64,000 nucleotides of DNA from the IMG/VR virus record IMGVR_UViG_3300033489_000513; one strand, given 5' to 3'. This DNA comes from a virus. The position numbers and the translations under genes were made by a program. Shown here one piece after another: positions 7,817 through 44,535 of this stretch; within the stretch, counting starts at the first letter, position 1, and each line of letters opens with the position of its first letter. The notes beneath the pieces are model-generated. The model saw only the letters and a program-made list of their open reading frames with translations. It made no database searches and had not been told where the DNA came from.

Positions 7817-8500
7817 ATGGATGTTTTGAAAAAATGTCATCATTGTATGGAATATTATTTAGGGCAATTAATGAATCCAATGGCATATTGTCCGAAACCA
7901 GATTGTCAAAAGGTATGGAAGCGAGTTTTAGTTAGTATAATTCATCAAAGATACCATTTAATGGAGGACTTGGATGTTTGGTCTCCTACTTTGAAGGATG
8001 ATTATGGGTTTCCTCGAAGAGTCTGCCGGATTTGTGGGGGACTTCTTCGATATACTAAGAAAGGGCGCGTGTCTCAGTCGAGATATTGTGATGAATGTCG
8101 CGCCAAGGAGGGTGATGGATTATTTCGTAAAATATTTGCTATGTTTGAATGGAATGAAGCTCGCGCTGCATTTATGCGCCAAAAGAGAATTGCGTGGGAT
8201 GGTAAAGATGTTTATGAATGTGAAGGGTGTCACGAATTCTTTCCCGCATCTAAAGTAGATGTGCATCATATCAAACCCGTCCATACTCTCGATGAAACAA
8301 ACTATCGTCTTACGTGGGATCCTTCGAATTTCACGATTCGTTGTGCAAAATGCCATGGTATCGCACATCGAAAAGCGGAGAAGATTTCTCCTTCTGAATT
8401 GTACAAACAACAAATGAGAAAAGTCCACCTTTCATTGGATAGATTCTTGCCTTCAACGCAAGTTTTGAAAGAAATAAAAAAGGAAGAAGCGTCACGATAA
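7817..8500 (+). CDS. HNH endonuclease with Zn fingers
   Basis: CEGC...VDVHHIKPVH...DPSNF..RCAKCHGIAH. Confidence 0.85.
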   Translation: MDVLKKCHHCMEYYLGQLMNPMAYCPKPDCQKVWKRVLVSIIHQRYHLMEDLDVWSPTLKDDYGFPRRVCRICGGLLRYTKKGRVSQSRYCDECRAKEGDGLFRKIFAMFEWNEARAAFMRQKRIAWDGKDVYECEGCHEFFPASKVDVHHIKPVHTLDETNYRLTWDPSNFTIRCAKCHGIAHRKAEKISPSELYKQQMRKVHLSLDRFLPSTQVLKEIKKEEASR

Positions 8501-8541
8501 AGGCGAAAACTAGCGCTTTGAGTGAAACGATCATTCGCTTC
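8486..8541 (-). ncRNA. k-turn-closed guide-like sRNA kt1
   Basis: GAAGCG-AAU-GA-UCG [31 nt] CG-U-GA-CGCUUC; no own promoter, lies 7 nt past stop of ORF 8548-8871. Confidence 0.65.
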
Positions 8542-8547
8542 GAGAAT

Positions 8548-8871
8548 CTAACGTTTTCGGGTTGGTTTCTTAGAAACGGGTTTTGCTTTCAATGTAGAAG
8601 AGAGATCCGCAAATAAATTCTTTAGATTTTCATCAACCTGTGTAATCTCCGTTTTAAATTTCTTCTCAAGAGCTTCATCCCGTTTGATGGAAAGTTCATC
8701 TATTGAACCAAGTTTACGTTCAAAACGGGCACGATCTTCTTGAAGATCTGCGATAGCAGAATTAATGCCCGCCAAACTCTTTATATAAATTTCAACTTCT
8801 GCTTGGAGACTTTTAAATGCGTTTATATCAACTTTCTCAGTTTTATTTCGTTTAAAGAGATCCATATGCAA
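8548..8871 (-). CDS. coiled-coil hypothetical protein
   Basis: 107 aa, heptad pattern. Confidence 0.6.
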   Translation of the reverse strand: MHMDLFKRNKTEKVDINAFKSLQAEVEIYIKSLAGINSAIADLQEDRARFERKLGSIDELSIKRDEALEKKFKTEITQVDENLKNLFADLSSTLKAKPVSKKPTRKR

Positions 8872-8884
8872 ACCTTCTAAGTTT

Positions 8885-8903
8885 GTGAGAGATATCCTCT
8901 CAC
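8885..8903. promoter_or_regulatory. perfect dyad GTGAGAG-N5-CTCTCAC
   Basis: inverted pair of the genome-wide GTGAG half-site next to a TATA box. Confidence 0.55.
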
Positions 8904-8925
8904 GGATATAAAAAGATTGGGAAAA

Positions 8926-9471
8926 TTATTTACTTTTAAAATATTTGTTTTTTGAGAAACTCATCATAGTCGTGTCTCCTATTTGTGAGAAGAGATGCTG
9001 ATCCTTTGTATTATCGGACATCCATGTGGTCCACGTATATTCTTTAGGTGGCCAATCATAATGAGTTGGTGGCCATCTAGTGGGTTCGTGTGATGGGGGT
9101 TCGGGCGATGGGATAATATAGGGTTGAATGATAACTTTAACCGGTTCTGGTTTGAATGTTTCCACGGGAGTTTCTTTAGGTTTAGGAAGTTTATATCCAC
9201 GCCGATTGAAAATCTGGTGTAAGAAGGAGAAAACGAGGGATCCAATTCGATATCCAAACCCTGAACTCCGTTTTTGTTGGGTTAGAATAATATCGAGTTT
9301 CATATTTAACTCCGCTATTGCGCGGAAGAGCATTTCATCCATCTTTGGCGCGGGAGGAACGTTTTCACCAAGCATCCCACAAATTTTGCAAGGGGACTTT
9401 TCCCATTTCGCGCCACAACCTGGGCAATATTTAATGTCTGATGTCGATTCTTCTGAAATATGAATCACCAC
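8926..9471 (-). CDS. Zn-ribbon + Pro-rich hypothetical protein
   Basis: CPGC..CKIC N-terminus. Confidence 0.55.
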   Translation of the reverse strand: MVIHISEESTSDIKYCPGCGAKWEKSPCKICGMLGENVPPAPKMDEMLFRAIAELNMKLDIILTQQKRSSGFGYRIGSLVFSFLHQIFNRRGYKLPKPKETPVETFKPEPVKVIIQPYIIPSPEPPSHEPTRWPPTHYDWPPKEYTWTTWMSDNTKDQHLFSQIGDTTMMSFSKNKYFKSK

Positions 9472-9500
9472 AATGAGATAGTTCTCACAATTATAAAAAC

Positions 9501-9872
9501 TTACTTAATAATGAAGAAAAGAGATTCAAAGAATACAAATACAAATATCAACGTTATCAATAATTTCCAATACTTTAATTGTTTTTTATTTTTCTGGCTA
9601 TCCAAATGCAACTCCTGAAACTCCGCTTGTAATTGAACTAATTTCGAGTTTTGTTGTAGGATATATTCCTTATCTTCCTTTGCTCGTTGTGCGCTTATCT
9701 TTTGTTCTTCTTCTCGCATTTGTATGATATAATTTGAAGGATTTAATCCACCTAACCAATAGTGAATATCTGCACCGCAAGAAGTACAATAGCGAATGGT
9801 ATTTAGAACGAGATGCCCGCAGGCAGGACAATTATCTTTAGTTGTGTCTAGTTCAAACATATTATTCCCCAT
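9501..9872 (-). CDS. double Zn-ribbon, coiled-coil, C-terminal TM protein
   Basis: CPAC..CTSC; hydrophobic C-terminal 20 aa. Confidence 0.6.
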   Translation of the reverse strand: MGNNMFELDTTKDNCPACGHLVLNTIRYCTSCGADIHYWLGGLNPSNYIIQMREEEQKISAQRAKEDKEYILQQNSKLVQLQAEFQELHLDSQKNKKQLKYWKLLITLIFVFVFFESLFFIIK

Positions 9873-9900
9873 ATTTTTAAAAATAAAGAAAATTAAAAGA

Positions 9901-10155
9901 TTACTTTTCCTTTAGAATGAAAACAACTATAGGTCTCCCGCGCTTGCTATTTTGGGTAGGATATTTATCCACGATATTCCGATTCATTAATTTAGATAAT
10001 GTATCGTAAATCGTAGTCCTCGCAGTTTTGAGTTGGACTACTATATCCCCGCGAGTCATTGGACCTTTAGATCCCAAGAGTTCGACAATATCCTTCTCTA
10101 AATCCGAATTTAGGACATATTGATTTCCTTTCTGGTATATGGTTGAAATTACCAT
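9901..10155 (-). CDS. TrmB-like winged-helix transcription regulator
   Basis: GPMTRGDIVVQLKTARTTIYDTLSKLMNRNIV...KRGRP. Confidence 0.75.
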   Translation of the reverse strand: MVISTIYQKGNQYVLNSDLEKDIVELLGSKGPMTRGDIVVQLKTARTTIYDTLSKLMNRNIVDKYPTQNSKRGRPIVVFILKEK

Positions 10156-10205
10156 AGGCTCTCACAAATCATTTATTACAAGTTATATATTAAAATGTCG
10201 GTTAT

Positions 10206-10718
10206 TTATAGATGAGATTCTTCTTCTTGTTCTTCTTCCTCTTCCTCTTCCTCTTCCTCATTTATTTTGTAGGGGTGTTTATTGAAAAAATCTTCAATAA
10301 GAGAGAGACTTCTTTCCCCAAAAGTTTCACGACTTTTATCCTGCCAAGGTTTATCTCGTGAAGGTCTTATACCTTCTGCGTTATCATCCGTGCGACCAAT
10401 ACAAACTTTTACGGATCCCCTAACTCGTTGTCCATAACAGATTTTAATTGCACGAGCATAGTAGGGATTATCTGATGATTCGTGACAACATCCCGCTCCA
10501 CCAAATGATATTTCGTCCCAGTTTTTATTCACGGATTTCGCATAGAAAATAGGATCATTCATTATGATATTTTGGGAAACACATCCATAATTCCAAGAAA
10601 TCGTGAGATCGGGAATTTCAAGGATCATCTTTTTCGCGAGTTCTAATTGTTCATTCATACTTTTACTCATTTCATCATATTTCGTTTTTTCCTGGGTTAT
10701 TTCAGAGATTATGTCCAT
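10206..10718 (-). CDS. hypothetical protein with poly-Glu tail
   Basis: likely start MDIISE; EEEEEEEEEQEEE tail. Confidence 0.55.
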   Translation of the reverse strand: MDIISEITQEKTKYDEMSKSMNEQLELAKKMILEIPDLTISWNYGCVSQNIIMNDPIFYAKSVNKNWDEISFGGAGCCHESSDNPYYARAIKICYGQRVRGSVKVCIGRTDDNAEGIRPSRDKPWQDKSRETFGERSLSLIEDFFNKHPYKINEEEEEEEEEEQEEESHL

Positions 10719-11490
10719 TTTTATCACCAAGCGATTTTGATGGTAAACGCTCATCCTCACAGAATTGTTTGAGATAGTTAGAATCTTGAGTGAAAACAGG
10801 AATTTCCAAATCTACCACCCATTTCGGGCGGGAGATAAATCCTTGAAAATGCTCATTTTTAACTTCATATGTTTGTTCTCTTTTAATAATACACCGCCCA
10901 TTCTTTAAAATTGTCGGAAGATTAGCCCAGTTCTGTCCCTTTGCAAAGCATAGTTCATGCAATTCCGATTTCTTCTTCCCCGCCAAATGTCGGTGGGAAT
11001 AAAGAGAACGAGCCAACATCTGGAGAGAATTGCGGGACCAATCGTTTTGTCGATGAATAAAGTAGTTCTGAATCTCATATGGAGGAAGTATGAAAGCGCG
11101 GCTATCAAACGTTACAATGTAATTTGGTTTGAAATCGTGTTCATATTTCCATTTCATTGTCGCGGCTGCGGCCAAACTCGCGGAGATACTACAAAGTTTC
11201 GCATAAACATTTCCAAACCACGGTTCTTGCGGGGATTGATTGTAAACGAGAAGATTTATTTCATCCGATTGGAGATAAGCAACTTTTGTATTACTTATTT
11301 CCTTACATAAGGCAATGCCTACGGTATTCATTAATTCAATTAATTGAAAATCAAATGGTTTTTCCATCCCTCTCGTAAATTTATGAAAACAATGGCCATC
11401 CACGCGAATGATGAGGGGAAAATTGGGCGGAAGAATAAGGTGGGTTGTTTCCTCATATTTCTTCATCCGATCCCCGAGCGAATCATCCAT
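10702..11490 (-). CDS. thg1: tRNA(His) guanylyltransferase Thg1-like protein (3'-5' polymerase)
   Basis: LGDRMKKYE, IIRVDGHCFHKFT, YLQSDEI, FDSRAF, RQNDWSRNS motifs; start at MDDSL. Confidence 0.92.
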   Translation of the reverse strand: MDDSLGDRMKKYEETTHLILPPNFPLIIRVDGHCFHKFTRGMEKPFDFQLIELMNTVGIALCKEISNTKVAYLQSDEINLLVYNQSPQEPWFGNVYAKLCSISASLAAAATMKWKYEHDFKPNYIVTFDSRAFILPPYEIQNYFIHRQNDWSRNSLQMLARSLYSHRHLAGKKKSELHELCFAKGQNWANLPTILKNGRCIIKREQTYEVKNEHFQGFISRPKWVVDLEIPVFTQDSNYLKQFCEDERLPSKSLGDKNGHNL

Positions 11491-11513
11491 AGTTAAACCT
11501 CTCACGCAGAATT

Positions 11514-11738
11514 TCACTGATATTTTTTAGCGAATTGTGATTCGGGATATAATTTAATTGTTTCCTTGATAATTTCTTTTGTGATTTTGGAGATGTTAGA
11601 AAGTAATAAGGGATTAGGTTTCCATCCATTAAGATCATCACCAAATTTAACTTCAATCCCCGCATCCCAAAACCACGAAATTTGGAGGTTGATCTCGGAA
11701 TTATAAAGGTCTTGAAGAACTGTTTCTAATTTATGCAT
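11514..11738 (-). CDS. hypothetical protein
   Basis: 74-aa ORF, ISWFWDAGIEVKFGD pattern. Confidence 0.55.
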   Translation of the reverse strand: MHKLETVLQDLYNSEINLQISWFWDAGIEVKFGDDLNGWKPNPLLLSNISKITKEIIKETIKLYPESQFAKKYQ

Positions 11739-11750
11739 AAGATATCCTTC

Positions 11751-13195: not shown

Positions 13196-13218
13196 CCCGA
13201 ACATTTAATCAATGACAT

Positions 13219-14280
13219 ATGTTGGAACACGAATTCGAAATTTGTTGGGATGATCTAAAACCAATTCTCGCGGCTCACAAAGAATTTGCCGTGAAAGAGG
13301 AAGTAGTAAATGGACACTTCTTGAAGATCGTGTGTTATATTTATCAAGAGGAAGAAACTTTCGATTCTCCCATTGCGCGTGAACTTAGGGGAATCGTTTT
13401 CGATGAAGATGGGACTTGTATTTGCCGTCCCTTCCACAAATTCTTTAATGTGGGAGAAATCCAGATGAAAAAGACCGTTGAGCCAAACTGGGCCAAAGCA
13501 ACGTTCTCCCAGAAATGGGATGGGAGTATACTTATGCCTGTTTTATTGGATGGTAAAGTTTTTTGGAAAAGTCGGAAGAGTTTCTATTCTGATACCGTGG
13601 TAAAAGCAAAGCAATTTACTTGCCAATTAGAATATTTGGATCTTGTAATGAAATATTTGGAAAAAGGACAAACGCCTCTTTTTGAATTGGTAGGTCCTCA
13701 TAATCCTCTCGTTATTCAATATGAAAAAGATGATCTTGTTTTTCTCGCGGCTCGTGATATGAAATCGGGACATTATACTGAATTTTGCGATCAATTTCCT
13801 ATGAAATGGGTGGATGTCCCTGCGATGGAAGGTGTGGAAGGATTTGTCGTGTGGGACACTCAGGAACTCTATAAATTAAAAACGAAATGGTATATGGAAC
13901 GATTCCGCGTGACAATGGGAAAAAGTGTTCGATCTATCGTAGAAGCCGCCCTCGCGAATAAGATTGATGATATGCTTCCTTTGGTAACAACTCTCACGTG
14001 GAAAGAAGAAATCCAACAAATCGCCAAGAATGTATACTATGATTTGGATCAGAAGTTGACTGCAATTGAAGTTGCCTATGCATCCATTGATCATACTTTC
14101 TCCCAAAAGGATTTTGCAATGGACGTGAATGCCAAATATTCCTCTCTCTCCAAATACATTTTTATGCGAAGAGCAGGAAAAGACGAAAAATGTATTCAGA
14201 AAGTTAAAGAGGATATAGCGAGAGATTGGCGAAAATATATCGTTTCACCAGATAATCCCTTAGATCCAGAGGGAGATTAA
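13219..14280 (+). CDS. T4 Rnl1-like RNA ligase
   Basis: RELRGIVF..RPFHKFFNVGE, motif I KWDGS, FELVGPHNPLV, EGFVV, KLKTKWY. Confidence 0.85.
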   Translation: MLEHEFEICWDDLKPILAAHKEFAVKEEVVNGHFLKIVCYIYQEEETFDSPIARELRGIVFDEDGTCICRPFHKFFNVGEIQMKKTVEPNWAKATFSQKWDGSILMPVLLDGKVFWKSRKSFYSDTVVKAKQFTCQLEYLDLVMKYLEKGQTPLFELVGPHNPLVIQYEKDDLVFLAARDMKSGHYTEFCDQFPMKWVDVPAMEGVEGFVVWDTQELYKLKTKWYMERFRVTMGKSVRSIVEAALANKIDDMLPLVTTLTWKEEIQQIAKNVYYDLDQKLTAIEVAYASIDHTFSQKDFAMDVNAKYSSLSKYIFMRRAGKDEKCIQKVKEDIARDWRKYIVSPDNPLDPEGD

Positions 14281-15006: not shown

Positions 15007-17813
15007 GCGATATAATAAAATGTGTATGTTGTAATTCTAACGAAAATGCACCATATACTTTACATGGGTATCCGTTCTGTGAGACTTGTTGTAATCTCGG
15101 ATATTATGTTTCCCCCGAATACAAATATCTAACCACATTAAATATATCTGAACGAATTGGTGCTTACAAAGAGGCCATATATGCTTACGTGCGGCGGTTC
15201 CGAAAAGAACATTGTACCCATTATATTACAATAGGAACGTTTGTATGTGGTATTACAATGAGAAATGGATTCGATTGTTGGGGTTGCGGGGCGTTTAACG
15301 CGAAAACGCCCGCTGAAAAGGAAAAGAAGTCTACTGATTGTCGGAAATGCGTTCATTGGTTCACGAAAAATCAAATATGTGATCAAATTCCTGATATTCA
15401 AGAGGATAATTGTTTGAAATTTATTGCGCGGGCGTGTGAAAACTGTGCAAACGAAAAAGCTCAAACATGTTATGGAGTAATAGGTCATTGTTTCGATTAT
15501 AATCTTTGGCAACCCCACAAGGAAATATCCTGCAGACATTGTGGGAAGTTTCATAGTTCAGGAGAGAGAACTTGTGATAATTGTGGGAGCAAGTGTGGGA
15601 TTGGAATATGTACCAAACATTCCCAGTGGACATCAAAAATAATAAAACAAGAAGAGAAACCAGTGAAGAAAAAGGAGGTTTGTGGAAATTGTGTGAAGTG
15701 GATGCAATGTCCCACGGGAGATTCCAACTATGGAAAATGTTCTGATCCTACAGGTTACGTAAGTAATCCTAGAAAGGATTGTACTCCTATGACTACTACC
15801 TGCTTCACGCTCCGCCCGATGAATGCCGTAAAACCGATTCAAGACAAGTTCACGGATTGTATCACGAATCATCTTTTTTCCGCGTGTTATGTAAAAAACA
15901 AAGAATGTCTCGAACAACCTAAATGTATCCTTTGTGGAGAACGCGTGTGTTATCTTCAATCTTATCATAGTAATAACGAACATTTATGCAAAAAATGTTT
16001 TGATGACGGAAAAGGTTGGGAGAAAGTGGAGAAACTCAAAGAAAAGCTAGAATTAATTCAACCTAAATCCTGCGGTATATGTATGCATTTTCATGAAGAT
16101 GCTTCCTTTAAAACAAAGGGTACGGATCTTGAAGGATATTGCGATGTTAAGAATAGAAGGATACCCGTGGGAAAGAAATGGGGTAACGCCTGCACGGAAG
16201 GATTTGTTAAAAAAAGACAGCCCTCGCCGCGTACCTGCGAGACTTGCGGGCACTTTCACATAGTAAACGATAAAGATTTTCCGCAGCGGGGTGGATATTG
16301 TGATGCGATGGCAGGTAAATCAAAAGAAGGTTATTTTACCATCGCCAAAGAACACTTGATTAACCTATGTTGTGTGGATGCGGATGGTATTAACCAATAC
16401 ATCCCAATTACTTCGCCAGTATGCGCGCGGTGTGGTGGTTCAGAACAGATAGTAGGCGAAATAGATATTGCGGAAGGACAACCGCCTCATCTCGTGAAAA
16501 TTTGTAAAATATGTTCCTCCAAATTAAACACGAAACAAGGACCTAGAAGTTGGTATTCAATATATCAAGAGGAAACCCGCGCGAGTAAAGTACGGCACTG
16601 CGATAAGGACAAACAAGTAGAACTAACCCAACCGTGCGTGAGATGTGGTAATGCATCAACTCATAAAGAATTTGCATTTGAGTGGAATGGAGAAATAAGC
16701 GAATCCACCCACATCCCGATATGTTACAAATGTTCGGAAGAATTTAAGGCAATAAAAACTAATTTATATTTCCAACAGCTTCGAGAAAAAGAGCGCGCGG
16801 CGGGAAGAATCTGGTACTGCGATAAATCTCCAAAAGAACAAAATAAATTTATGAAAGATTTATGTGATGAAATTATGACTCCGCAAATGTGGACATATGA
16901 ATGTACTGAATGGGGATCAACCAAAGAATGTGGGGATTGCTCGTGCCGTATAGAATACCCTTTCAAAAGCGGTGAACCAACCACAGATGAAGAGAAGATT
17001 AACTTGATTTGTCATTTCGATTGTGATGCGAAACATACCAAGAAATTTATCCGAATCAAAGAAAAGGAAGTGAAAATGAAAATGAAATGTCCAAATTGTG
17101 GAAAAATAGATGAAGCAGGACAAAAATATTGTGAAGGTTGTGGATCGCTTCTCCAAGATCCGCAAGTAGCGAAAGAAACCGCTGATTTGATGAAAGAAAA
17201 TGAATTGTTACTCAAGGAACAAGTGGAATATTTTGAAAAATGGCAGGGAGCGGAAGGGATAATAAAGAAGAATGATGAGACTATAAATGCATTAAATGAA
17301 AAAAATCAAGCATTAACAGAGGAGAATGCCAAATTGAAGCACAATGGTATCCCACGCCACTGCCATAAATGTATTGACCTCAAAATCGGGGAGTGGCCGT
17401 GTAAATATTGGCAACACGATGATACTTGGATGAATCCCTTTCATTTCCATTGCGCTAAACCCAAACACAAACCAAAGAAAACTACTTCCATCAATCATCT
17501 TCAGCGACAGATTAAAACCCACATACAACAAGTTAAATCTAAACAACATAAAATCGAGAATGAAGCAAAAAGAATCGTCCGCCAAATATATCGCGTTTGG
17601 AAAATAGTGCCAAATAATCTTTCATTTGGAGATTTTGAATATAAAGATAGTACTTACTTCTATTGGAAAGGTAATTATATTCTAAAATATGATACGGATG
17701 GTTTGTTTTTGAACTCTGTTGAAATCAAAGATTTCGAAAAATATGAAGAATGCAAACATCTCATCGAACCCGCCCTCCAAAAATATCTGGAAGAGAAACT
17801 TGCGGAGGGATAA
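15003..17813 (+). CDS. large multi-Zn-finger protein (936 aa)
   Basis: about 20 CxxC motifs, coiled coil near C-terminus. Confidence 0.75.
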   Translation: MSDIIKCVCCNSNENAPYTLHGYPFCETCCNLGYYVSPEYKYLTTLNISERIGAYKEAIYAYVRRFRKEHCTHYITIGTFVCGITMRNGFDCWGCGAFNAKTPAEKEKKSTDCRKCVHWFTKNQICDQIPDIQEDNCLKFIARACENCANEKAQTCYGVIGHCFDYNLWQPHKEISCRHCGKFHSSGERTCDNCGSKCGIGICTKHSQWTSKIIKQEEKPVKKKEVCGNCVKWMQCPTGDSNYGKCSDPTGYVSNPRKDCTPMTTTCFTLRPMNAVKPIQDKFTDCITNHLFSACYVKNKECLEQPKCILCGERVCYLQSYHSNNEHLCKKCFDDGKGWEKVEKLKEKLELIQPKSCGICMHFHEDASFKTKGTDLEGYCDVKNRRIPVGKKWGNACTEGFVKKRQPSPRTCETCGHFHIVNDKDFPQRGGYCDAMAGKSKEGYFTIAKEHLINLCCVDADGINQYIPITSPVCARCGGSEQIVGEIDIAEGQPPHLVKICKICSSKLNTKQGPRSWYSIYQEETRASKVRHCDKDKQVELTQPCVRCGNASTHKEFAFEWNGEISESTHIPICYKCSEEFKAIKTNLYFQQLREKERAAGRIWYCDKSPKEQNKFMKDLCDEIMTPQMWTYECTEWGSTKECGDCSCRIEYPFKSGEPTTDEEKINLICHFDCDAKHTKKFIRIKEKEVKMKMKCPNCGKIDEAGQKYCEGCGSLLQDPQVAKETADLMKENELLLKEQVEYFEKWQGAEGIIKKNDETINALNEKNQALTEENAKLKHNGIPRHCHKCIDLKIGEWPCKYWQHDDTWMNPFHFHCAKPKHKPKKTTSINHLQRQIKTHIQQVKSKQHKIENEAKRIVRQIYRVWKIVPNNLSFGDFEYKDSTYFYWKGNYILKYDTDGLFLNSVEIKDFEKYEECKHLIEPALQKYLEEKLAEG

Positions 17814-21555: not shown

Positions 21556-21885
21556 CTATTGAGGCACTTTAAAGCACGAATTATGTTTTGTAAAACCAAG
21601 GCGTTTGCCGAAATCTTTGGAATATTTTGCGGAGGATGTATTAAATAATATATTTTTAGATTCTCCCGATTCGCTAGCCCATAAGATAAGAAGGAGAAAA
21701 TCCCGCCCGTGTTTTTTATTGGGAATCCACCCAAAGATATCAAAAAACCAAGAATCGTCATCTATCTGCCAATCATCATCGTCATCCGTTACCATCTTAC
21801 AAGTATAACGATCCCACGTCACTTCAGGAAGGTCTTTGCGTAAACCTTTCATAATATCTTGAATAACATAATCAATTTTAGTCAT
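21556..21885 (-). CDS. hypothetical protein
   Basis: 109 aa, starts 19 nt downstream of kt2. Confidence 0.6.
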   Translation of the reverse strand: MTKIDYVIQDIMKGLRKDLPEVTWDRYTCKMVTDDDDDWQIDDDSWFFDIFGWIPNKKHGRDFLLLILWASESGESKNILFNTSSAKYSKDFGKRLGFTKHNSCFKVPQ

Positions 21886-21903: not shown

Positions 21904-21965
21904 AGTAGTCACGAAAAAGAATGGACCCAATTGTTGAGTTTGAAAGTACAAACGATCATCCTACC
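21904..21965 (-). ncRNA. k-turn-closed guide-like sRNA kt2
   Basis: GGUAG-GAU-GA-UCG [39 nt] CG-U-GA-CUACU; TATA 21989-21994. Confidence 0.7.
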
Positions 21966-21977: not shown

Positions 21978-21994
21978 TTGTGAGAATATTTAAA
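21978..21994. promoter_or_regulatory. bidirectional TTGTGAGAATA-TTTAAA promoter
   Basis: TTTAAA is 26 nt from + ATG 22021 and 23 nt from the 5' end of kt2 on the minus strand. Confidence 0.55.
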
Positions 21995-24331: not shown

Positions 24332-24388
24332 GACCATCACGTTAAAAATTACACAAAAACACTTGGACTATGAGCCGATCATTTGGTC
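24332..24388 (-). ncRNA. k-turn-closed guide-like sRNA kt3
   Basis: GACCA-AAU-GA-UCG [34 nt] CG-U-GA-UGGUC; promoter 24404-24419 overprinted on the upstream gene end. Confidence 0.7.
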
Positions 24389-24398: not shown

Positions 24399-25100
24399 TT
24401 AGATGTGAGAACATTTAAAAGTTTGTTGTTTGATATATCCAAAACTTCCACGTAATAATTTTGGTTTCACGATTGTAAATTTCCCTAATTCATGTATTAA
24501 TCGCATAACTTTATCTAAAGAAGGTTCGGGGAGATTACAGTTTTTCGTATCAAATCCAACATATACTCGCATAGGATCTATATTCCGAACCATATCTACG
24601 AGTTTTTCTAAATCAAATTCCAGGATTGGTTCGATTGTCACAATATCAATATTCCCCGTTTGGATCGCGAGGGCATATCTCACAGAAGGAGAGGGAGCTT
24701 TAGAAATGAGATTATATCCTACATCCCGATTGGTTTCTAATGTAATTCCCCGCCAAACATTCTTGGGCCAATCATATTGAGAGAATGCAGATGGTTTTTT
24801 GGTTTGAAAAAAGAATTGTTTGTGATATAAATCGCTTACTCGTTTTAAGATTAATTTCATCCATTCTGGTTCTGCAAAGGAAAAATCCCCGCTGGCCCAC
24901 GCCCAAATAAATTGATCTCCCGAAGTAGTAGGGAGAGGTTGTCGCAATCGTTCAGGGTGGAAATGGGGCGTAAAATAATAACAACGTTCACAATTATGAA
25001 GCTGGCGTTTAGCCTGAGCTTGGAAGGATTTTACACAATATACGCATCCAAATAAACAACCTTGCCCAACGCTCCACCTTTTTACTGCGTCCGAATACAT
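24399..25100 (-). CDS. DUF5131/Gp37Gp68-like radical SAM protein
   Basis: GCLFGCVYC (CxxxCxxC), FAWASGDF, FQTKKP, VTIEPIL. Confidence 0.7.
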   Translation of the reverse strand: MYSDAVKRWSVGQGCLFGCVYCVKSFQAQAKRQLHNCERCYYFTPHFHPERLRQPLPTTSGDQFIWAWASGDFSFAEPEWMKLILKRVSDLYHKQFFFQTKKPSAFSQYDWPKNVWRGITLETNRDVGYNLISKAPSPSVRYALAIQTGNIDIVTIEPILEFDLEKLVDMVRNIDPMRVYVGFDTKNCNLPEPSLDKVMRLIHELGKFTIVKPKLLRGSFGYIKQQTFKCSHI

Positions 25101-27334: not shown

Positions 27335-27394
27335 TAACCTCACGAATAGTTTTGTAGGCAGAAACTTAAGGAAATATGATACGATCATTGGTCA
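27335..27394 (-). ncRNA. k-turn-closed guide-like sRNA kt4
   Basis: UGACC-AAU-GA-UCG [37 nt] CG-U-GA-GGUUA; separated from its promoter by the TnpB element. Confidence 0.7.
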
Positions 27395-37033: not shown

Positions 37034-37272
37034 TGTTGTGCCTTCTTATTTTTGTGTTCTTCATTCAGTTTTGTGATGAATTGGGAGATCGTCATTAAAC
37101 ACCTATCCGAGTGAACTGTCTCGTTGGCAATTGTTGGAAAGAAACAATAATGTCTCCACGAACCATACCATTTTATCTTCCCGAGGATATCACCACTCAC
37201 TTTAGCTACAACCGCATAAACTCGCGTTTTTGCCTTTTGTTCCATCTCAATGAAATTCAACCATTCACTCAT
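37030..37272 (-). CDS. conserved phage-type hypothetical protein
   Basis: LGKIKWYGSWRHYCFFP...CL..ISQFI pattern. Confidence 0.6.
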   Translation of the reverse strand: MSEWLNFIEMEQKAKTRVYAVVAKVSGDILGKIKWYGSWRHYCFFPTIANETVHSDRCLMTISQFITKLNEEHKNKKAQQ

Positions 37273-37463
37273 AATTTGTCCTCACTAACTTTATTCCAAG
37301 ATATCCCACCATCTTGGAATTTCGGCAGGGTCACTTTCGAGATAAACTTGTGCATAGAGAATGTCGTGGGGATTATTCGAGTTATAATCAGAAATATCTA
37401 CCTCACGATCTTCGATTATTGTTACAACGTGATTCAAAATGCGGAGGAGGCGCAAATGAACCT

Positions 37464-37823
37464 TCATATAAAACGGAAACCCCCGAATTCACCTTCGTTT
37501 TTGGATTTTACTACTTGTATTTCGGGTGGCGAACAATCGTGAAGACTCCAACGCTCCTTAGCAAAGAAGAGAATTGCCTCCGCGTGAACTTTCACTCTAT
37601 TTCCTAATATATCCAAGATTGGATATTTCGGATTTTGCACTCGAACCCAGACATAACGATTGGGTACCACCGCTGAGGCATCTACTCGCCATTCTGGGAG
37701 CAGTATTTGAATAAGGTTGGCGATCGCTGCAGTTCGTTCTTCTTCTACTGTTTTCATATAGTCATATTCTTCTCCAATTTCTTGACCACATTTCCGACAT
37801 CTTGGCAACATTCGCCATCGCAT
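37464..37823 (-). CDS. hypothetical protein
   Basis: 119 aa, CRKC. Confidence 0.5.
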   Translation of the reverse strand: MRWRMLPRCRKCGQEIGEEYDYMKTVEEERTAAIANLIQILLPEWRVDASAVVPNRYVWVRVQNPKYPILDILGNRVKVHAEAILFFAKERWSLHDCSPPEIQVVKSKNEGEFGGFRFI

Positions 37824-37919
37824 TCATTATTATTATCATCATCATCCGTTTGTTCAATCTCTCCGTAAACATCGATGTAATCGGGAGGAATCCTCTCCCG
37901 CTTTTTCCCTTTTCTCTGC

Positions 37920-38108
37920 TCACTCATTGCGGCGGCCATCCACATTCCATTTAAACGCAAAACAAGTGCCTTTCTTAAGTTTTGGATTCACCCAAATGGG
38001 ATTATCTTGCTTGCCTTCTTTTTGGATCAGAAGAAATCCTTCCAACCCACAATGGGGTTTAAACGGGTTTCGGGAAGCACAATGCGTGCATTCTTGGAAA
38101 GAGGGCAT
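37920..38108 (-). CDS. small Cys-containing protein
   Basis: start MPSFQEC after GGAGG. Confidence 0.5.
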   Translation of the reverse strand: MPSFQECTHCASRNPFKPHCGLEGFLLIQKEGKQDNPIWVNPKLKKGTCFAFKWNVDGRRNE

Positions 38109-38258
38109 TTTACTCGCTCGCCCTCCAATTGTTGATGCCAGCCTCAACGACCGCGCGGATCGCATCATAGCAGTTCTGGCAGAAGTCACCCTTGCCAGGT
38201 AGCAATCGCGGGTCGACCAGGCGATGGCACATCTTGCATGATACGCTCGGGATGAGAC

Positions 38259-38423
38259 TCAAAACTGGTCGACCTCCTTGATACTCGTGACTTCCACATC
38301 GGCAGGTTCTATTTTCGAGCTCGCGAGCCCTTCGGCGCGGGCATATGCTTCCTCTTCGTCACACGCAGTCACGAGGAAACTCATATCCCGTTCGATGTGA
38401 ACCCATATGGTGTAGACGGGCAT
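38259..38423 (-). CDS. small hypothetical protein (paralog of 39089-39250)
   Basis: MPVYTIWVHI...VTACDEEEA after GGAGG. Confidence 0.55.
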   Translation of the reverse strand: MPVYTIWVHIERDMSFLVTACDEEEAYARAEGLASSKIEPADVEVTSIKEVDQF

Positions 38424-38558
38424 CTTACTCGCTCCCCTCCCGAAACTGTTGGGAGGCAAGACAATCTCTACAATACCAATGACCATTCAATATCGATTTA
38501 TATAATTTGGGTGGTGGTCTTTTTCCGCAAGTATAACAACGGTCTTTGGCATCAGGCA

Positions 38559-39020
38559 TTACTCACTCGCCTCCATCCGTTTGACAGAGGTAATCCATAC
38601 CCGTATGTCATCGTCTTTGATTGCATCTCGAATCATATCCATCGTTTCTGTTTTAAATAAGTAGTACAATAATTGTAAGTTGCCTTTAAGTCCCCAATCA
38701 TCTGCCTCGCCACATCGTTCCATTGTTTGGCAATAAATAATGCCCGCATCGCGTGCGAGTCGATTTATTGCCCGTGCCACGATCTCAAATATCTCAGTTG
38801 GTTGCTCTCCATCTTGCGCGTCAAATTCTGCGATTACCGAGCAATGATCTCTGACAACTTTCGCCTCTTTATCATTTTGGGGAATCAATTGGAGAATCGC
38901 GTTCTCTTGGGTAATACACACGGAAGCATTGAATGGATGCCCACGAAGCTCAAATCCGCTAAAATTAAGGGTTATAATGTTATTATTTTGTGTGAAAGTA
39001 CCAAGTTTGAAATCTCTCAT
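38559..39020 (-). CDS. hypothetical protein
   Basis: 153 aa. Confidence 0.55.
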   Translation of the reverse strand: MRDFKLGTFTQNNNIITLNFSGFELRGHPFNASVCITQENAILQLIPQNDKEAKVVRDHCSVIAEFDAQDGEQPTEIFEIVARAINRLARDAGIIYCQTMERCGEADDWGLKGNLQLLYYLFKTETMDMIRDAIKDDDIRVWITSVKRMEASE

Positions 39021-39088
39021 CTACTCATTCGCCCCCGCGGTTTGGATCGCTTGCACGTCCGCGAAGGACAATTGTTCGATGGTGGGCA

Positions 39089-39250
39089 TTACGGTTCCAC
39101 CTCAATTTTCTCTATATAACAAGTATTATCCGTGATTTCAGCAATCGCTCTCTTATATGCAATATCAACCGCGATATCTTCGTCATCCGCTGTCACATGG
39201 ACGATCGTATTCCATTTTCTGATACAAACCGTGATAGCATAGTTGGGCAT
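39089..39250 (-). CDS. small hypothetical protein (53 aa, manual)
   Basis: MPNYAITVCI...VTADDEDIA, similar to 38259-38423. Confidence 0.5.
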   Translation of the reverse strand: MPNYAITVCIRKWNTIVHVTADDEDIAVDIAYKRAIAEITDNTCYIEKIEVEP

Positions 39251-39633
39251 TGATTATGCCTCCCATTTTCGCTTAAAATCGATTAGAACCTGACTCGCCT
39301 CTTCCATATCTGTATAGAGAGTGCCGTCTAAATCCTGATCAATTTCATATTCAAGGGCGGTTTTCAAGACTTCATATTGCTTTTTCGTGAGAGTGATTGT
39401 TTTTTCTATTTGTTCTGTTTTTTCCATTTTAATTCCTCTCTATAATTTTTGGGTCAAGTCTCAATTCCATCCGAACCTTATTACATTCAGATCCATTCCA
39501 GAAGAAACAACTAAATTGCACGCAAGGGAATTCTTCATCTCTGGTATTATTAACAGACCAATAGCGAAAAGGACAAATCATAATGAAATATTGGAGACGA
39601 AAAATATAAAGGTTTGTGAGAATAGAAAAATCC

Positions 39634-39840
39634 TTAATTCTTCTTCTTCAATTTAATGATCGCAATTAAACAAGCAAATCCAAGAATAAACCAGAAAGCC
39701 GTCCAATAATCAATGATGAGGGCGCTTGACAGCATAATGGTTATTATTCCATTCCACCAAAGTTGGAATAATAATGCAATGCTGAGGAAGCCTACTATCA
39801 ATAATACAAAGAGTAGGGGGGTTAAATCTTCTTTATCCAT
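39634..39840 (-). CDS. small membrane protein
   Basis: 2-3 hydrophobic segments, basic C-terminus. Confidence 0.55.
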   Translation of the reverse strand: MDKEDLTPLLFVLLIVGFLSIALLFQLWWNGIITIMLSSALIIDYWTAFWFILGFACLIAIIKLKKKN

Positions 39841-40018
39841 TGTTCATTTTCACCTTTGAACTATTCTCCTTCAAATTCAATATTTCCGCTCTTAAATTAT
39901 CTTTATGATGAAAATCGAGATGAGTGCCTATCTGACCTTCAGGTATCTCTTTATTGCATAAACAACAGAGATAGAATATCCGTTCTCCATCGAGGAAGGC
40001 TTCAAAGACTTTGATCAT
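39833..40018 (-). CDS. small C2H2-like Zn-finger protein
   Basis: CCLC...HLDFHH. Confidence 0.5.
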   Translation of the reverse strand: MIKVFEAFLDGERIFYLCCLCNKEIPEGQIGTHLDFHHKDNLRAEILNLKENSSKVKMNNG

Positions 40019-40039
40019 ATGATTTACACTCGTTCAATT

Positions 40040-40444
40040 TTAATAATAAATACCTTCATTAAATGAGATATCCGCAAGCTGGGTTTCGTTTAAATCTATA
40101 CAATAACTTGCTTTCCATTTTGCGAAATTTAAGGGTTGCAATTGTTCTTTATGGTAAAGCGGTAATGCCTGCGTGATCTCATCAAAATCATATTGATAGG
40201 AACAATCAAAAAATTCGCAGATGCCGTGCATAAAATAATCGTGAACAATGCGTCCCTCACAGAGAGGACAAAGCATTTCATCATAAAGATCTTTGGGGCG
40301 TGCTCCCTCCGATTGGTTGTAAAATCCAATCTCGATTCCAGCCGCATAGTTCTCGCTCCAACTTCCTAACTTCCTAAAGAAGGAAATTCGTGCTCGATCC
40401 CACCACGTCAGCGGGTGAACGCGGGACTTCCGTTTCTTTGCCAT
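40040..40444 (-). CDS. Zn-ribbon hypothetical protein
   Basis: CPLC..C..FDC; downstream of kt9. Confidence 0.55.
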   Translation of the reverse strand: MAKKRKSRVHPLTWWDRARISFFRKLGSWSENYAAGIEIGFYNQSEGARPKDLYDEMLCPLCEGRIVHDYFMHGICEFFDCSYQYDFDEITQALPLYHKEQLQPLNFAKWKASYCIDLNETQLADISFNEGIYY

Positions 40445-40504
40445 CGATATTTCACATCTTGCTCTGTTAGTTGTTTCGCGATTTCAATTATTCTGACTTT
40501 TGGA

Positions 40505-40556
40505 GAGCAATCACGAAAGAAGGAACTTCTTGTATTATGGCTCGATCATTTTGCTC
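40505..40556 (-). ncRNA. k-turn-closed guide-like sRNA kt9
   Basis: GAGCAA-AAU-GA-UCG [27 nt] CG-U-GA-UUGCUC; promoter 40569-40585. Confidence 0.75.
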
Positions 40557-40600
40557 ATATGATGATTGTTGTGAGAAGTTTTATACTTATCGGAAAAAAA

Positions 40601-40688
40601 TTAATTCTCTCACGAAGACCCACCCCATTGCTTCCCGTCCGTTTTAAGGGAGTCCCTTTTGCCCTACAGAAGAAGACCCAGGGTAATT
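40601..40688. repeat. non-coding ~88-nt element, copy A
   Basis: blocks CTCTCACGAA, CATTGCT, TTAARGGAGTCCC, GGGTAATT shared with 45790-45878. Confidence 0.6.
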
Positions 40689-40716
40689 TCAAGATGTAAA
40701 AAGGAAAAAAAGAAAA

Positions 40717-41280: not shown

Positions 41281-41284
41281 ACCT

Positions 41285-41644: not shown

Positions 41645-41672
41645 GTGGAAACCTCATATTCTATGATCTTTT

Positions 41673-41948
41673 TCATTTTTGGGTATTATAAAAACGTTGG
41701 TAAGCTTTGTGCATTAATTGGTGGTGTTCCTTGCGACATTTCGGACATCGTTTACAATAATAACCCACAAAATACTGCTTACATTCAATACATAACCAAG
41801 TTCTCTTTCGTCCCAATCCAGTCCGATATTTATGCCCGTTTGACCTGCGGCATCCATCACAGATCGGACTTGCCTTTGCGATAAACGGAGCCTTGCAGCG
41901 CGGACAAATAGTATGGTGATCCATATTTAACTTCCCAAAAGAGAGCAA
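41673..41948 (-). CDS. Cys-rich basic hypothetical protein
   Basis: several CxxC; downstream of kt10; start uncertain. Confidence 0.45.
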   Translation of the reverse strand: MLSFGKLNMDHHTICPRCKAPFIAKASPICDGCRRSNGHKYRTGLGRKRTWLCIECKQYFVGYYCKRCPKCRKEHHQLMHKAYQRFYNTQK

Positions 41949-41999
41949 TCACTAATTATGTCAAATAAGTATAATAATATGAAACCGATCATCTTGCTC
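41943..41999 (-). ncRNA. k-turn-closed guide-like sRNA kt10
   Basis: GAGCAA-GAU-GA-UCG [32 nt] AG-U-GA-UUGCUC; promoter 42013-42029. Confidence 0.72.
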
Positions 42000-42232
42000 C
42001 AGATAAAGATTGTTGTGAGAAGTTTTATACTTATCGGATCGGATTACTTTTCTTATGGACCCCGCTCTTTCTTCAAAGTATCCACGAGGAGAGTAGTCGT
42101 CTTCAATATAGACTCAATGTGATTGACCATTGTCCGCAACTCGGCTGCGAGTCCTCCAAGTTCTCTGAGAATCTTTTCTGTATATTCAAGATTATTGATT
42201 ATAACCATTTTAAATTCATCCTATTTGTCATA

Positions 42233-42665: not shown

Positions 42666-42762
42666 AAAAAAAAGTTTACTCCTTCAATTTTTTAGGGGTT
42701 TCATTTTTATATTTCCTTGAAATTAACAAAGGAATAACATATTAAAAATGGTTTGTGAGAAC

Positions 42763-43278
42763 TTATATATGTTTAAGTTCATTTAAATGTTCTTCAAACA
42801 AAGCATCATTCACTGCTTTGGGTTTTTCCTTATCCTCTTTGCCATCAAATATTTGTCGGGTTTCGTCTTTATTTTCCCTTGGAATTAAATGAACGTCCAA
42901 AGACCTGAGCAAGACACTTTTCCGTTCCGCCAAAGCAATATTCTTTTCGGCGATTCCGAGTTTCCGGTTCCATTCCACTTCCCACCATTTTCCTCGTTCT
43001 CGTTCCAAAATAAAATGGTTTTTCATAATTTCTCGTTCTTTCTCAGAATATGGCGTATGAGTGGGATTATTTTTCCAGAACTCTTCCCATTCAGCGCGCC
43101 TTCTTTCGTCAAAAGTATGTCCAACAAGAACGTGTTTTGCCCAATCACGATCTTCGCGATATAGTTTTAACCGTTCCTCAACATCTTCAAGGATCTTCAA
43201 TAACCATTGGCGTATATCCATTTCTAGTCTTATAATTTCCGTTACTTCGTCAAATTTTTGTTCAACCATATTAATCAC
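42763..43278 (-). CDS. coiled-coil hypothetical protein
   Basis: 171 aa, class C promoter near 43317. Confidence 0.6.
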   Translation of the reverse strand: MINMVEQKFDEVTEIIRLEMDIRQWLLKILEDVEERLKLYREDRDWAKHVLVGHTFDERRRAEWEEFWKNNPTHTPYSEKEREIMKNHFILERERGKWWEVEWNRKLGIAEKNIALAERKSVLLRSLDVHLIPRENKDETRQIFDGKEDKEKPKAVNDALFEEHLNELKHI

Positions 43279-43347
43279 AAAACTTCTTAAGTAGAGGTAA
43301 TATAAGAATGGGAAAATATAAAGGTTTGTGAGAGGAACGTAAAAAAA

Positions 43348-43683
43348 TTAAATGGGGGTTACATTATTTAATATTTCGAGCAGAGATTTCCCAATGCCTG
43401 TTTGAATTTTGGTATAGCTCATAGTGTCTCCGCAATCCTTCGCGATCTCGGAAAGTAGGGGGAAAAGACGGGATTCAATCAAATCTAATCCAATAATAGA
43501 ATAATGTTGAATCATTCCCGCAAGACCCTCTTCTGTTTGGAGATAAGCGAGTATTTTTAATCCTATTTTCCGTCTCTTTTCTTCAGATTCAGGATCTTGG
43601 GCACACATTGTTTTAAAAAAGGACCAATTTTGGAGGATATTATATAACTCGTTCATATGCATACACTTCAATTGTTTGAACAA
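43348..43683 (-). CDS. hypothetical protein
   Basis: true start probably an internal Met just downstream of kt11. Confidence 0.5.
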   Translation of the reverse strand: MFKQLKCMHMNELYNILQNWSFFKTMCAQDPESEEKRRKIGLKILAYLQTEEGLAGMIQHYSIIGLDLIESRLFPLLSEIAKDCGDTMSYTKIQTGIGKSLLEILNNVTPI

Positions 43684-43745
43684 TCACGAATCTATGGAAT
43701 TGAGTAAAATCAATGAAAATATGTTAACACGATCATCTTGTTCAA
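43676..43745 (-). ncRNA. k-turn-closed guide-like sRNA kt11
   Basis: UUGAACAA-GAU-GA-UCG [41 nt] CG-U-GA-UUGUUCAA (compensatory G-C to A-U versus GAGCAA/UUGCUC); promoter 43757-43773. Confidence 0.78.
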
Positions 43746-43774
43746 GAGGGAAGTTATTGTGAGAACATTTAAAG

Positions 43775-44047
43775 TTATGTATCTTTTTTTATTTTCTTTT
43801 TGAATATCTTGAAAAAAAGAACTAACACCCAGAAGATCATCACGGGTAAGAGAAGGAGGACCGTGACCCAATCTGCGACCAACGAAAAATATGCCAAGAA
43901 TAAGATCTGACCAATCAGAATCCCGATCGCTCCTATCATACTGAAACTATCAATACTATCCCTATTTTTCACTATCGCAACAATGGAAGGTATGGTCCCA
44001 ATAAAGAGCGATAATGTTGCGATATTAGACAAGATAGAGATATCCAT
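43775..44047 (-). CDS. PQ-loop/SemiSWEET-like 3-TM protein
   Basis: TIPSIVAIVKNRDSIDSFS followed by two more TM helices. Confidence 0.5.
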   Translation of the reverse strand: MDISILSNIATLSLFIGTIPSIVAIVKNRDSIDSFSMIGAIGILIGQILFLAYFSLVADWVTVLLLLPVMIFWVLVLFFKIFKKKIKKDT

Positions 44048-44107
44048 GAAGGAATATTAGCGGGAGAAAATATAAAGATTGTGAGAAAAAGATAAAAAAC
44101 CGTCAAA

Positions 44108-44308
44108 CTATCCCTTATCAGGATATAATTTCTCGTCTTCCTTCAACCATATGAGGAAGGGCTCTTTCTCTGCGGGGATATGAGCGTGAGCCGCCCGTGT
44201 GAGTAATTGGATAATTTCGGGAGAGGAGTTCTTGAAAACTTCCAATGCGCCCGTGTCACTCAAACCATCCTCTATGGCGCTTTTAACCAACATATATAAT
44301 GTCATCAT
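44108..44308 (-). CDS. hypothetical protein
   Basis: 66 aa downstream of kt12. Confidence 0.5.
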   Translation of the reverse strand: MMTLYMLVKSAIEDGLSDTGALEVFKNSSPEIIQLLTRAAHAHIPAEKEPFLIWLKEDEKLYPDKG

Positions 44309-44348
44309 TTAGATCAAGGGTATCTTTTGGAGATGCCGATACTTTGTA

Positions 44349-44422
44349 TGAGCAATCACGAAAAAGGTGTCTTTCATAATTCATAAACTTGAATAAACAT
44401 ATGAACCCGATCATCTTGCTCA
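44349..44422 (-). ncRNA. k-turn-closed guide-like sRNA kt12
   Basis: UGAGCAA-GAU-GA-UCG [47 nt] CG-U-GA-UUGCUCA; promoter 44436-44450. Confidence 0.75.
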
Positions 44423-44468
44423 ATAGGAAGAAGGATGTGAGAATATAAATAATTTGTGGAAAAAGGAT

Positions 44469-44535
44469 GAGCAATCACGAAAGAAATTCAAGCAATATCA
44501 TAACATTATCAAAAGTGAACCCGATCATTTTGCTC
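44469..44535 (-). ncRNA. k-turn-closed guide-like sRNA kt13
   Basis: GAGCAA-AAU-GA-UCG [42 nt] CG-U-GA-UUGCUC then UUUUU; promoter 44549-44565; no ORF before the next promoter. Confidence 0.78.

Follow-up and report, generated by a model that had tools for sequence, protein, structure and literature searches.

We describe a family of 13 small RNA elements, here called kt, encoded on the minus strand of a 64-kb stretch of DNA (64,000 nucleotides, referred to below as the window) from the IMG/VR record IMGVR_UViG_3300033489_000513. The window is part of a 145,402-bp contig from a soil metagenome, 81 kb of which lie outside it. Each element is a hairpin in which a closing stem leads into what reads as an L7Ae-type kink-turn, closing a loop that is unique to the copy. 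We suggest that kt is a cis-acting, L7Ae-dependent 5´-terminal RNA module, with the stand-alone copies representing the same module by itself, and put the probability of this reading at roughly 0.4.

The core pattern ATGATCG-N20-50-GTGA has 13 matches in the window, every one on the minus strand, where 1.27 would be expected and the maximum among 100 shuffled sequences was 5. All 13 share one layout: a closing stem of 4-8 bp, a 3-nt bulge, GA, UCG, an interior of 26-47 nt, CG-U-GA and the returning strand of the stem, for an overall size of 51-74 nt. The bulge is GAU in seven copies and AAU in six, and the 3´ box of kt41942 is UAGUGA in place of UCGUGA. The elements are spread over about 36 kb (8486-44535). 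In a MAFFT alignment of the 13 copies, 99% of the stem cells are paired, and the closing stem of 4-8 bp is paired throughout (100%). Six of its eight pairs have changed on both sides, for a total of 20 compensatory cells. The observed covariation values were reached in 0 of 500 column shuffles, and pairing fell to 24-51% once the 3´ partner was slid by 1-3 columns. Wobble pairs number four; each is G-U when read on the minus strand and would become an A-C mismatch on the plus strand.

A covariance model of the 13 copies, searched without filters on both strands of the window, recovered all of them at 34-57 bits and nothing else of the kind; the next match scored 16.7 bits, and inspection of the weak matches by eye revealed no recognisable core. 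The kt elements are thus a family of 13 members within the window, and the covariation identifies them as strand-specific hairpins constrained at the level of RNA. The evidence for the family is covariation within a single genome, since no relative was found. A preliminary description made from the letters of the sequence had proposed 13 minus-strand elements of this architecture, with stems that change completely yet always pair and a one-base exception in the core of one copy. These claims hold, with coordinates agreeing to within 1-2 nt, but the additional degenerate copy that it counted was not recovered by the covariance model. The members, with the open reading frames (ORFs, lengths in amino acids, aa) that they precede, are:

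44469..44535, minus strand: kt44469, stem GAGCAA/UUGCUC, 42-nt loop, stand-alone, with a T5 run between it and the next promoter; 56.9 bits.
44349..44422, minus strand: kt44349, stem UGAGCAA, 47-nt loop, leader of a 66-aa ORF at 44108-44308.
43676..43745, minus strand: kt43676, stem UUGAACAA, 41-nt loop, leader with the ATG 14-20 nt downstream and an ORF running to 43348.
41942..42000, minus strand: kt41942, stem GGAGCAA, 32-nt loop, 3´ box UAGUGA, leader with the ATG 17 nt downstream.
40505..40556, minus strand: kt40505, stem GAGCAA, 27-nt loop, leader of a 134-aa ORF at 40040-40444, 60 nt downstream.
35258..35308, minus strand: kt35258, stem GAGCAA, 26-nt loop, leader of a 174-aa ORF at 34691-35215, 42 nt downstream.
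33609..33675, minus strand: kt33609, stem GGAGCAA, 40-nt loop, leader of a 78-aa ORF at 33336-33572, 36 nt downstream.
28926..28992, minus strand: kt28926, stem AUGACUC/GAGUCAU, 40-nt loop, stand-alone, with the next promoter-kt unit downstream.
28773..28824, minus strand: kt28773, stem GCCC/GGGC, 31-nt loop, stand-alone, with T4 between it and a promoter.
27335..27394, minus strand: kt27335, stem UGACC/GGUUA, 37-nt loop, with the ATG of a 61-aa ORF 8 nt downstream; separated from its promoter by a TnpB insertion.
24332..24388, minus strand: kt24332, stem GACCA/UGGUC, 34-nt loop, stand-alone; the next gene has a separate promoter.
21904..21965, minus strand: kt21904, stem GGUAG/CUACU, 39-nt loop, leader of a 109-aa ORF at 21556-21885, with a GAGG Shine-Dalgarno-like motif and the ATG 18 nt downstream.
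8486..8541, minus strand: kt8486, stem GAAGCG/CGCUUC, 31-nt loop, stand-alone, without a promoter of its own; it begins 7 nt past the stop codon of the ORF at 8548-8871, just ahead of a T6 run, and so occupies a 3´ untranslated region (UTR) or terminator position.

Most of these elements have a fixed position downstream of the standard promoter of this genome. Across the window, the octamer TTCTCACA is found 43 times (2.5 expected; span 6698-62533), usually directly after a TATA-like box (TTTAAANN or TATAAANN) and ahead of genes. In 11 of the 13 kt copies, this TATA+TTCTCACA motif ends 11-15 nt (mode 13) before the first base of the stem. Because the TATA box is then centred near -26, promoter geometry predicts that archaeal transcription would start at the first stem nucleotide. 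The junction at this position is a pyrimidine followed by G in nine of the 11 promoter-bearing copies, the others being T followed by A (kt28926) and T followed by T (kt44349). The promoters and the one insertion that interrupts the arrangement are:

44550..44565, minus strand: promoter of kt44469, TATA box TTTAAACG plus TTCTCACA, motif ending 14 nt before the stem.
44436..44451, minus strand: promoter of kt44349, 13 nt before the stem.
43758..43773, minus strand: promoter of kt43676, TTTAAATG+TTCTCACA.
42014..42029, minus strand: promoter of kt41942, TATA+TTCTCACA type.
40570..40585, minus strand: promoter of kt40505, TATA+TTCTCACA type.
35322..35337, minus strand: promoter of kt35258, TATA+TTCTCACA type.
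33689..33704, minus strand: promoter of kt33609, variant CTCTCACA.
29004..29019, minus strand: promoter of kt28926, TATA+TTCTCACA type.
28838..28853, minus strand: promoter of kt28773, variant ATCTCACA.
28738..28753, minus strand: orphan promoter that probably served kt27335 before the TnpB insertion.
27400..28728, minus strand: TnpB (OrfB_IS605) insertion, between the orphan promoter and kt27335 and outside the kt family.
24404..24419, minus strand: promoter of kt24332, TATA+TTCTCACA type.
21979..21994, minus strand: promoter of kt21904, TATA+TTCTCACA type.

The absence of a promoter next to kt27335 is explained by the insertion of TnpB between promoter and element: both junctions of the insertion read TGAT, and rejoining them gives back a promoter-to-stem spacing of 14 nt. 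The insertion is of the TnpB-only IS200/605 type, and its 3´ flank is the 5´ half of kt27335; the 3´ flank of TnpB elements is where their guide RNA is usually read out. As for the promoter itself, a minus-strand class (TTTAAANN+TTCTCACAA) is found between 6 and 47 kb, and a plus-strand class with a longer conserved upstream part (GTCTCGCCTATAAGGTC+TTCTCACAA) at 49.8-59.3 kb. Most long ORFs of the latter region lie on the opposite strand, and the transcripts from this class may be antisense or encode small orphan genes.

In eight of the 13 copies (44349, 43676, 41942, 40505, 35258, 33609, 27335 and 21904) an ATG follows 8-60 nt downstream with no promoter between, and these elements can be read as 5´ leaders; the remaining five (44469, 28926, 28773, 24332 and 8486) stand alone. 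Shine-Dalgarno-like motifs and ATGs lie 5-60 nt past the 3´ strand of the stem and never within it. The small genes downstream of the leader copies show no similarity to one another, and we rejected the idea that they are paralogues.

The junction between stem and loop reads as a kink-turn in which the closing stem forms the C helix, G/A-A-U the bulge positions L1-L3, G-A and A-G the pairs 1b:1n and 2b:2n, U-U the pair 3b:3n, C-G 4b:4n and G-C 5b:5n. The (G/A)AU bulge followed by GA on the 5´ strand faces the GA of the 3´ strand in register in all 13 copies, and in the NC helix the U-U and C-G pairs are present in 13 of 13 and the G-C pair in 12 of 13. By its sequence, the core has every feature of a standard simple kink-turn of the L7Ae type, as the preliminary description had proposed from the bulge, the tandem G-A/A-G pairs and the U-U pair, and binding by the L7Ae of the host would be expected. 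Leaders of archaeal l7ae mRNAs that are bound by L7Ae likewise have a GAU bulge and tandem G-A pairs (PMC6298567, PMC5539422). According to a further report (PMC5689011), box C/D kink-turns with a U-U pair fold only upon L7Ae binding; since kt has the same U-U pair at 3b:3n, its folding would therefore be predicted to occur only upon protein binding.

Archaeal box C/D small RNAs (sRNAs) are a close comparison. Like kt, they measure 51-74 nt, close with a terminal stem, build a kink-turn from 5´ and 3´ boxes that include a U-U pair, vary in their interiors and are often found in UTRs. They differ in the 4b-4n pair, which is flipped in kt (AUGAUCG/CGUGA versus RUGAUGA/CUGA), a feature that the preliminary description had read correctly. 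The boxes RUGAUGA and CUGA are absent, and all kt copies carry AUGAUCG and (C)GUGA. No conserved internal motif that could serve as C´/D´ boxes emerged from 5´- or 3´-anchored profiles of the 13 loops; UUGA occurs in five of them against about 2.5 expected, by a hand estimate on loops read by eye. Beside the 3´ box, where a variable guide would be expected, about half of the copies have a T-rich tract, and no 12-nt guide is recognisable there. Most kt copies, unlike box C/D sRNAs, also have a dedicated promoter. A search of Rfam 15 gave no match over the window at gathering scores, and within 21000-45000, where 12 of the 13 copies lie, no kt matched at E<=5. Among the databases and papers that we searched, no viral RNA family of this kind came up. 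By definition, the kt sequences are not those of box C/D sRNAs.

The loops are where the copies differ. They are U-rich and G-poor (44% U, 10% G), and the three that were folded alone had no structure beyond that of shuffled sequences. At an identity of 0.52, against 0.50 +/- 0.06 for shuffles, they are unalignable. Among the seven copies with GAGCAA-type stems, the stem halves are about 88% identical and the upstream 45 nt 67%, whereas the loops look random. This divergence resembles that of spacers, but the neutral drift of an unconstrained loop could also produce it, since the non-motif positions of the promoters of these copies are also close to saturation. One bias stands out: CAU occurs within the first 10 loop nt in nine of 13 copies (2.25 expected, P about 1e-4, noted post hoc); with CAC counted as well, 11 of 13 have the motif at loop positions 3-9. 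The reverse complements of the loops are also slightly closer than shuffles to the start regions of this genome (P 0.02). UCAU is complementary to the AUGA box of kt itself, and a small competing hairpin with that box offers a second explanation of the CAU bias.

For 12 of the 13 loops, BLAST and a wobble-aware ungapped scan of both window strands detected no complementarity above that of shuffles. The exception is the loop of kt21904 (21914-21952, minus strand), which could form 22 contiguous pairs, including G-U pairs, with plus-strand RNA at about 15262-15285 (-31.9 kcal/mol). This site falls 87 codons into a 936-aa zinc-ribbon ORF, and its significance is borderline when the 13 tests are taken into account; it differs from the reverse complement of the loop at seven positions, all transitions, five of which keep a wobble pair. 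Loops did not pair preferentially with the start region of their own downstream gene (mean -9.0 kcal/mol, versus -9.5 kcal/mol for the others). The first 10-11 nt of the kt44349 loop (GUUCAUAUGU, 44356-44366, minus strand) are complementary to CAUAUGAAC, in the start region of the gene led by kt43676 (43650-43665, minus strand); at -19.6 kcal/mol, this pairing is about 3 standard deviations below the mean of 100 loop/start-region pairs and may be due to chance. Coding functions were considered and rejected: small plus-strand ORFs starting within the loops are short and inconsistent, and the AUG of the 5´ box and the UGA of the 3´ box, the ends of a possible mini-ORF, share a frame in three of 13 copies, as expected by chance.

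The genome that carries these elements is, judged from its genes and promoters, archaeal in type. The window has 38% G+C, with most genes on the minus strand and Shine-Dalgarno-like motifs on many of them, and it encodes a PCNA, an ERCC4 nuclease, a Thg1-like enzyme, a T4-type RNA ligase, a DUF2828/vWA Ro-like protein, a TFIIB-type zinc ribbon and TnpB. The assignment follows from PCNA, ERCC4, Thg1, the TFIIB-type zinc ribbon and the TATA promoters; in the GenBank phage collection, the PCNA matches only archaeal tailed viruses, at <=25% identity. Because no capsid or terminase gene was seen in the window, "virus-like mobile element" is the safe term. Partner proteins were sought among about 100 window ORFs: 73 were compared with Pfam, the 25 largest without an assignment with NCBIfam and PHROGs, and four candidates with PDB sequences. 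No L7Ae-, Nop-, fibrillarin-, Tas- or Cas-like protein was found among them, though remote homologues could be missed by such searches. Genes for RNA repair or handling do occur in the window, namely the Thg1-like gene (10702-11517), the T4-type RNA ligase 1 gene (13219-14280) and the DUF2828/DUF7788/vWA Ro-like gene (29871-31388).

We rank the cis-acting 5´ module first because eight kt elements head mRNAs and because translational control by L7Ae through kink-turns in leaders is established in archaea. In this model, archaeal RNA polymerase would start at the first base of the closing stem. The first 12-19 nt of the element pair, on the evidence of covariation, with the last 11-13 nt to form the helix, the 3-nt bulge, the tandem G-A pairs, the U-U pair and two Watson-Crick pairs, and host L7Ae, the universal kink-turn binder of archaea, would clamp the junction. 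The result would be a compact ribonucleoprotein that holds both ends of the RNA and displays an unstructured, U-rich loop of 26-47 nt. In the eight leader copies the module would form the 5´ end of the mRNA, where the bound kink-turn could protect that end and could make translation or stability dependent on L7Ae, as in known L7Ae-regulated leaders. The five stand-alone small RNAs would be the same module alone, possibly acting as an L7Ae sink or as trans-acting RNAs. Since the C-G pair is flipped and C´/D´ boxes are absent, the particle would probably stop at L7Ae, without growing into a methylating box C/D particle.

Among known systems, the L7Ae-bound leaders of archaeal l7ae and nop5 (Daume et al., 2017, PMC5539422; Huang et al., 2019, PMC6298567) come close to kt. 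In both cases a 5´ leader behind a TATA promoter contains a hairpin with a GAU-type bulge and tandem G-A/A-G pairs. The kt elements differ in forming a 13-member family in a virus-like element, in having the kink-turn at the extreme 5´ end with the canonical stem made from the RNA termini, in a loop of 26-47 nt that is unique to each copy, and in the five copies without a downstream gene of their own. Several of our observations sit uneasily with the model. A structural module needs no long or unique loop, and those of kt are 26-47 nt, unalignable and enriched in CAU. The ribosome-binding site lies clear of the kink-turn in every leader copy, in contrast to the l7ae leaders, and the T4-T6 runs within several loops could terminate archaeal transcription early. 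In addition, no L7Ae gene was found in the window, and the family is known from a single contig.

In a rival reading, kt RNAs act in trans, as antisense or guide RNAs built on an L7Ae/kink-turn scaffold; every loop would pair with a target of its own, such as the start region of a host mRNA or of viral genes outside the window, and the constant kink-turn would keep the RNA stable and expose the loop. The preliminary description had proposed a repertoire of C/D-like guides, and the part that stands is that of dispersed, promoter-driven, strand-specific hairpins with unique loops. The guide role itself is not borne out, given the lack of C´/D´ boxes, targets that do not exceed shuffles apart from one borderline case, and the position of eight of 13 copies as leaders 8-60 nt before start codons, so that a cis-acting or processed leader fits at least as well as a free guide. 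Several features speak for a trans-acting role: five stand-alone units, three of them followed by T-runs; random-like loops beside stem halves that are 88% identical in the GAGCAA subfamily; a G-poor, U-rich composition as expected for antisense to purine-rich mRNA; CAU or CAC near the loop start in 11 of 13 copies; the resemblance of loop reverse complements to start regions (P 0.02); and the 22 contiguous pairs available to the kt21904 loop. On the other side, 12 of 13 loops show no complementarity beyond shuffles in the 64-kb window, the kt21904 loop matches a site well within an ORF and away from its start, with borderline significance once 13 tests are allowed for, and loops do not pair in cis with downstream start regions. 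Promoter positions are near-random too, so loop divergence could be neutral, and UCAU also complements the AUGA box of kt. We therefore regard this reading as unlikely, although it deserves to be taken seriously. Taken more broadly, kt might be a set of programmable, virus-encoded kink-turn/L7Ae RNAs whose loops target start regions of host or viral mRNAs or serve an undetected Nop-fold effector encoded elsewhere in the 145-kb genome, a dispersed, single-spacer counterpart of box C/D and TIGR RNAs; we hold this proposal to be equally unlikely. A further reading, quite improbable to us, is that kt elements are TIGR-like guides of the stem-loop type, steering to DNA or RNA targets a Nop-domain (Tas-like) effector whose gene would lie in the other 81 kb of the contig. 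Stem-loop TIGR units, like kt, have closing stems that vary but stay palindromic, anchors that are short and box C/D-like, and variable interiors; a locus has about 13 of them, and they occur in prokaryotic viruses, including archaeal ones (Faure et al., 2025; PMC12045711). With 64 kb visible of the 145,402-bp contig, an effector could lie outside. However, TIGR arrays of this kind are tandem, lie next to tas and have CCA/UG boxes without a kink-turn and two spacers of 8-12 nt (PMC12045711), whereas kt elements are dispersed over 36 kb (8486-44535), mostly with their own promoters, and have true kink-turn anchors with no second, internal box pair. The contrast drawn in the preliminary description between dispersed, single-spacer elements and TIGR arrays is thus accurate, as is its remark that the window holds no Nop-domain or Cas effector, in that none was detected by the Pfam, NCBIfam, PHROGs and PDB sequence searches; nor did the window ORFs searched include a Tas or IS110-like protein. 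TIGR-style paired 10-nt half-sites number four in the window, which does not exceed chance (1.95 +/- 1.6).

Three further accounts treat the loop as incidental, target rRNA or tRNA, or dispense with RNA function. Many kink-turn RNAs, if strongly transcribed, could act as a sponge or decoy that titrates host L7Ae, and possibly Nop5, thereby disturbing the biogenesis of host ribosomes and small ribonucleoproteins or relieving repression that depends on L7Ae. At least 13 consensus sites behind the genome's standard strong promoter motif would suit such a role, in which the loops could vary freely. The flipped pair may also block further assembly, as the 2002 work of Watkins et al. on stem II is reported to imply. 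For a decoy, on the other hand, a long loop, linkage to downstream genes and a CAU bias are all unnecessary. The cellular substrates of L7Ae, rRNA and about 60 sRNAs, are also present in very large amounts (PMC5539422), so that kt would have to be expressed at extreme levels to titrate it; we consider a sponge improbable. Genuine methylation guides working with host L7Ae, Nop5 and fibrillarin would explain the size of 51-74 nt, the terminal stem and the C/D-like kink-turn with its U-U pair, but hardly a box C that reads AUGAUCG instead of RUGAUGA, a box D that reads GUGA instead of CUGA, the missing C´/D´ boxes or the T-rich tract upstream of the 3´ box in about half of the copies. The scarcity of G in the loops also suits rRNA and tRNA targets poorly, and even at E<=5 over 21000-45000 no box C/D family of Rfam matched; we consider this account very improbable. 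The least probable, in our view, is a DNA-level dispersed repeat (REP/MITE-like, or a protein-binding palindrome) or a chance pattern, without RNA function. In its favor, the promoter-and-stem cassette has clearly been duplicated in part, and two copies coincide with breaks in contig assembly. Yet the stems differ and still pair, the wobble and G-A pairs make sense on one strand only, and the units, all on that strand, have unique, unalignable interiors and are not conserved along their length. The definition of a REP/MITE-like repeat was accordingly set aside for kt, with its unalignable interiors, covarying stems and single strand, and chance is excluded by the single strand, the promoter spacing and the enrichment of 13 over 1.27.

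The DNA contigs of the source sample are identical across the kt elements. A low-depth contig in the source run (3.4x, versus about 39x) joins position 33740 to 40698 with 23 other letters between, which suggests a minor variant in which about 7 kb holding two kt elements is lacking or replaced; the main assembly also breaks between 40593 and 42009, at repeated promoter-kt cassettes. Beyond this sample, the search for relatives was negative. The exact GAGCAA-stem pattern had no match in IMG/VR or JGI metagenome contigs, a specific promoter-and-core pattern (seven in the window, none expected) had none in viral or metagenome contigs, and loose promoter-and-core patterns gave single chance matches in IMG/VR, none with a stem. 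Neighbouring genes were followed as well. A 260-aa protein (29038-29820, minus strand), whose gene immediately precedes the kt28926/28773/27335 trio, is a member of a CxxxCxxC radical-SAM-like family; it shows an invariant CxxxCxxC and a C-terminal CxxCGNC and has no assigned Pfam family. It has 193 homologues in a representative library and 76 loci in IMG/VR, but the covariance model found no kt in 1.1 Mb around 79 homologues, where the promoter motif was not enriched either. No homologue of the 936-aa ORF was found, and a 403-aa ORF has one relative (46%), on a contig of 51% GC without kt or the promoter motif. The nearest relatives of the TnpB, at 41-43% identity, are in Heimdallarchaeota and Chloroflexota assemblies; since these include Heimdallarchaeota, 151 Asgard genomes were searched with the covariance model, which detected no kt in them.

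Kink-turns bound by L7Ae are central to archaeal ribosomes, to box C/D and H/ACA particles, to RNase P and to the autoregulation of L7Ae. In our literature searches on kink-turns or L7Ae in archaeal viruses, we found no paper with both and no report of a virus exploiting this pair. The kt elements are kink-turn/L7Ae-type RNAs close to box C/D, and their potential functional interest is high. If a viral genome indeed sets L7Ae-type sites at the 5´ ends of a dozen transcripts, they would be a first example of a virus plugging into the kink-turn machinery of its host, whether to control its own mRNAs, to drain L7Ae or to make guide-like RNAs. The flipped C-G pair would provide a natural test of an L7Ae-only particle versus full box C/D assembly, and an architecture that lies between box C/D sRNAs and TIGR stem-loop guides may bear on the evolution of RNA-guided systems.

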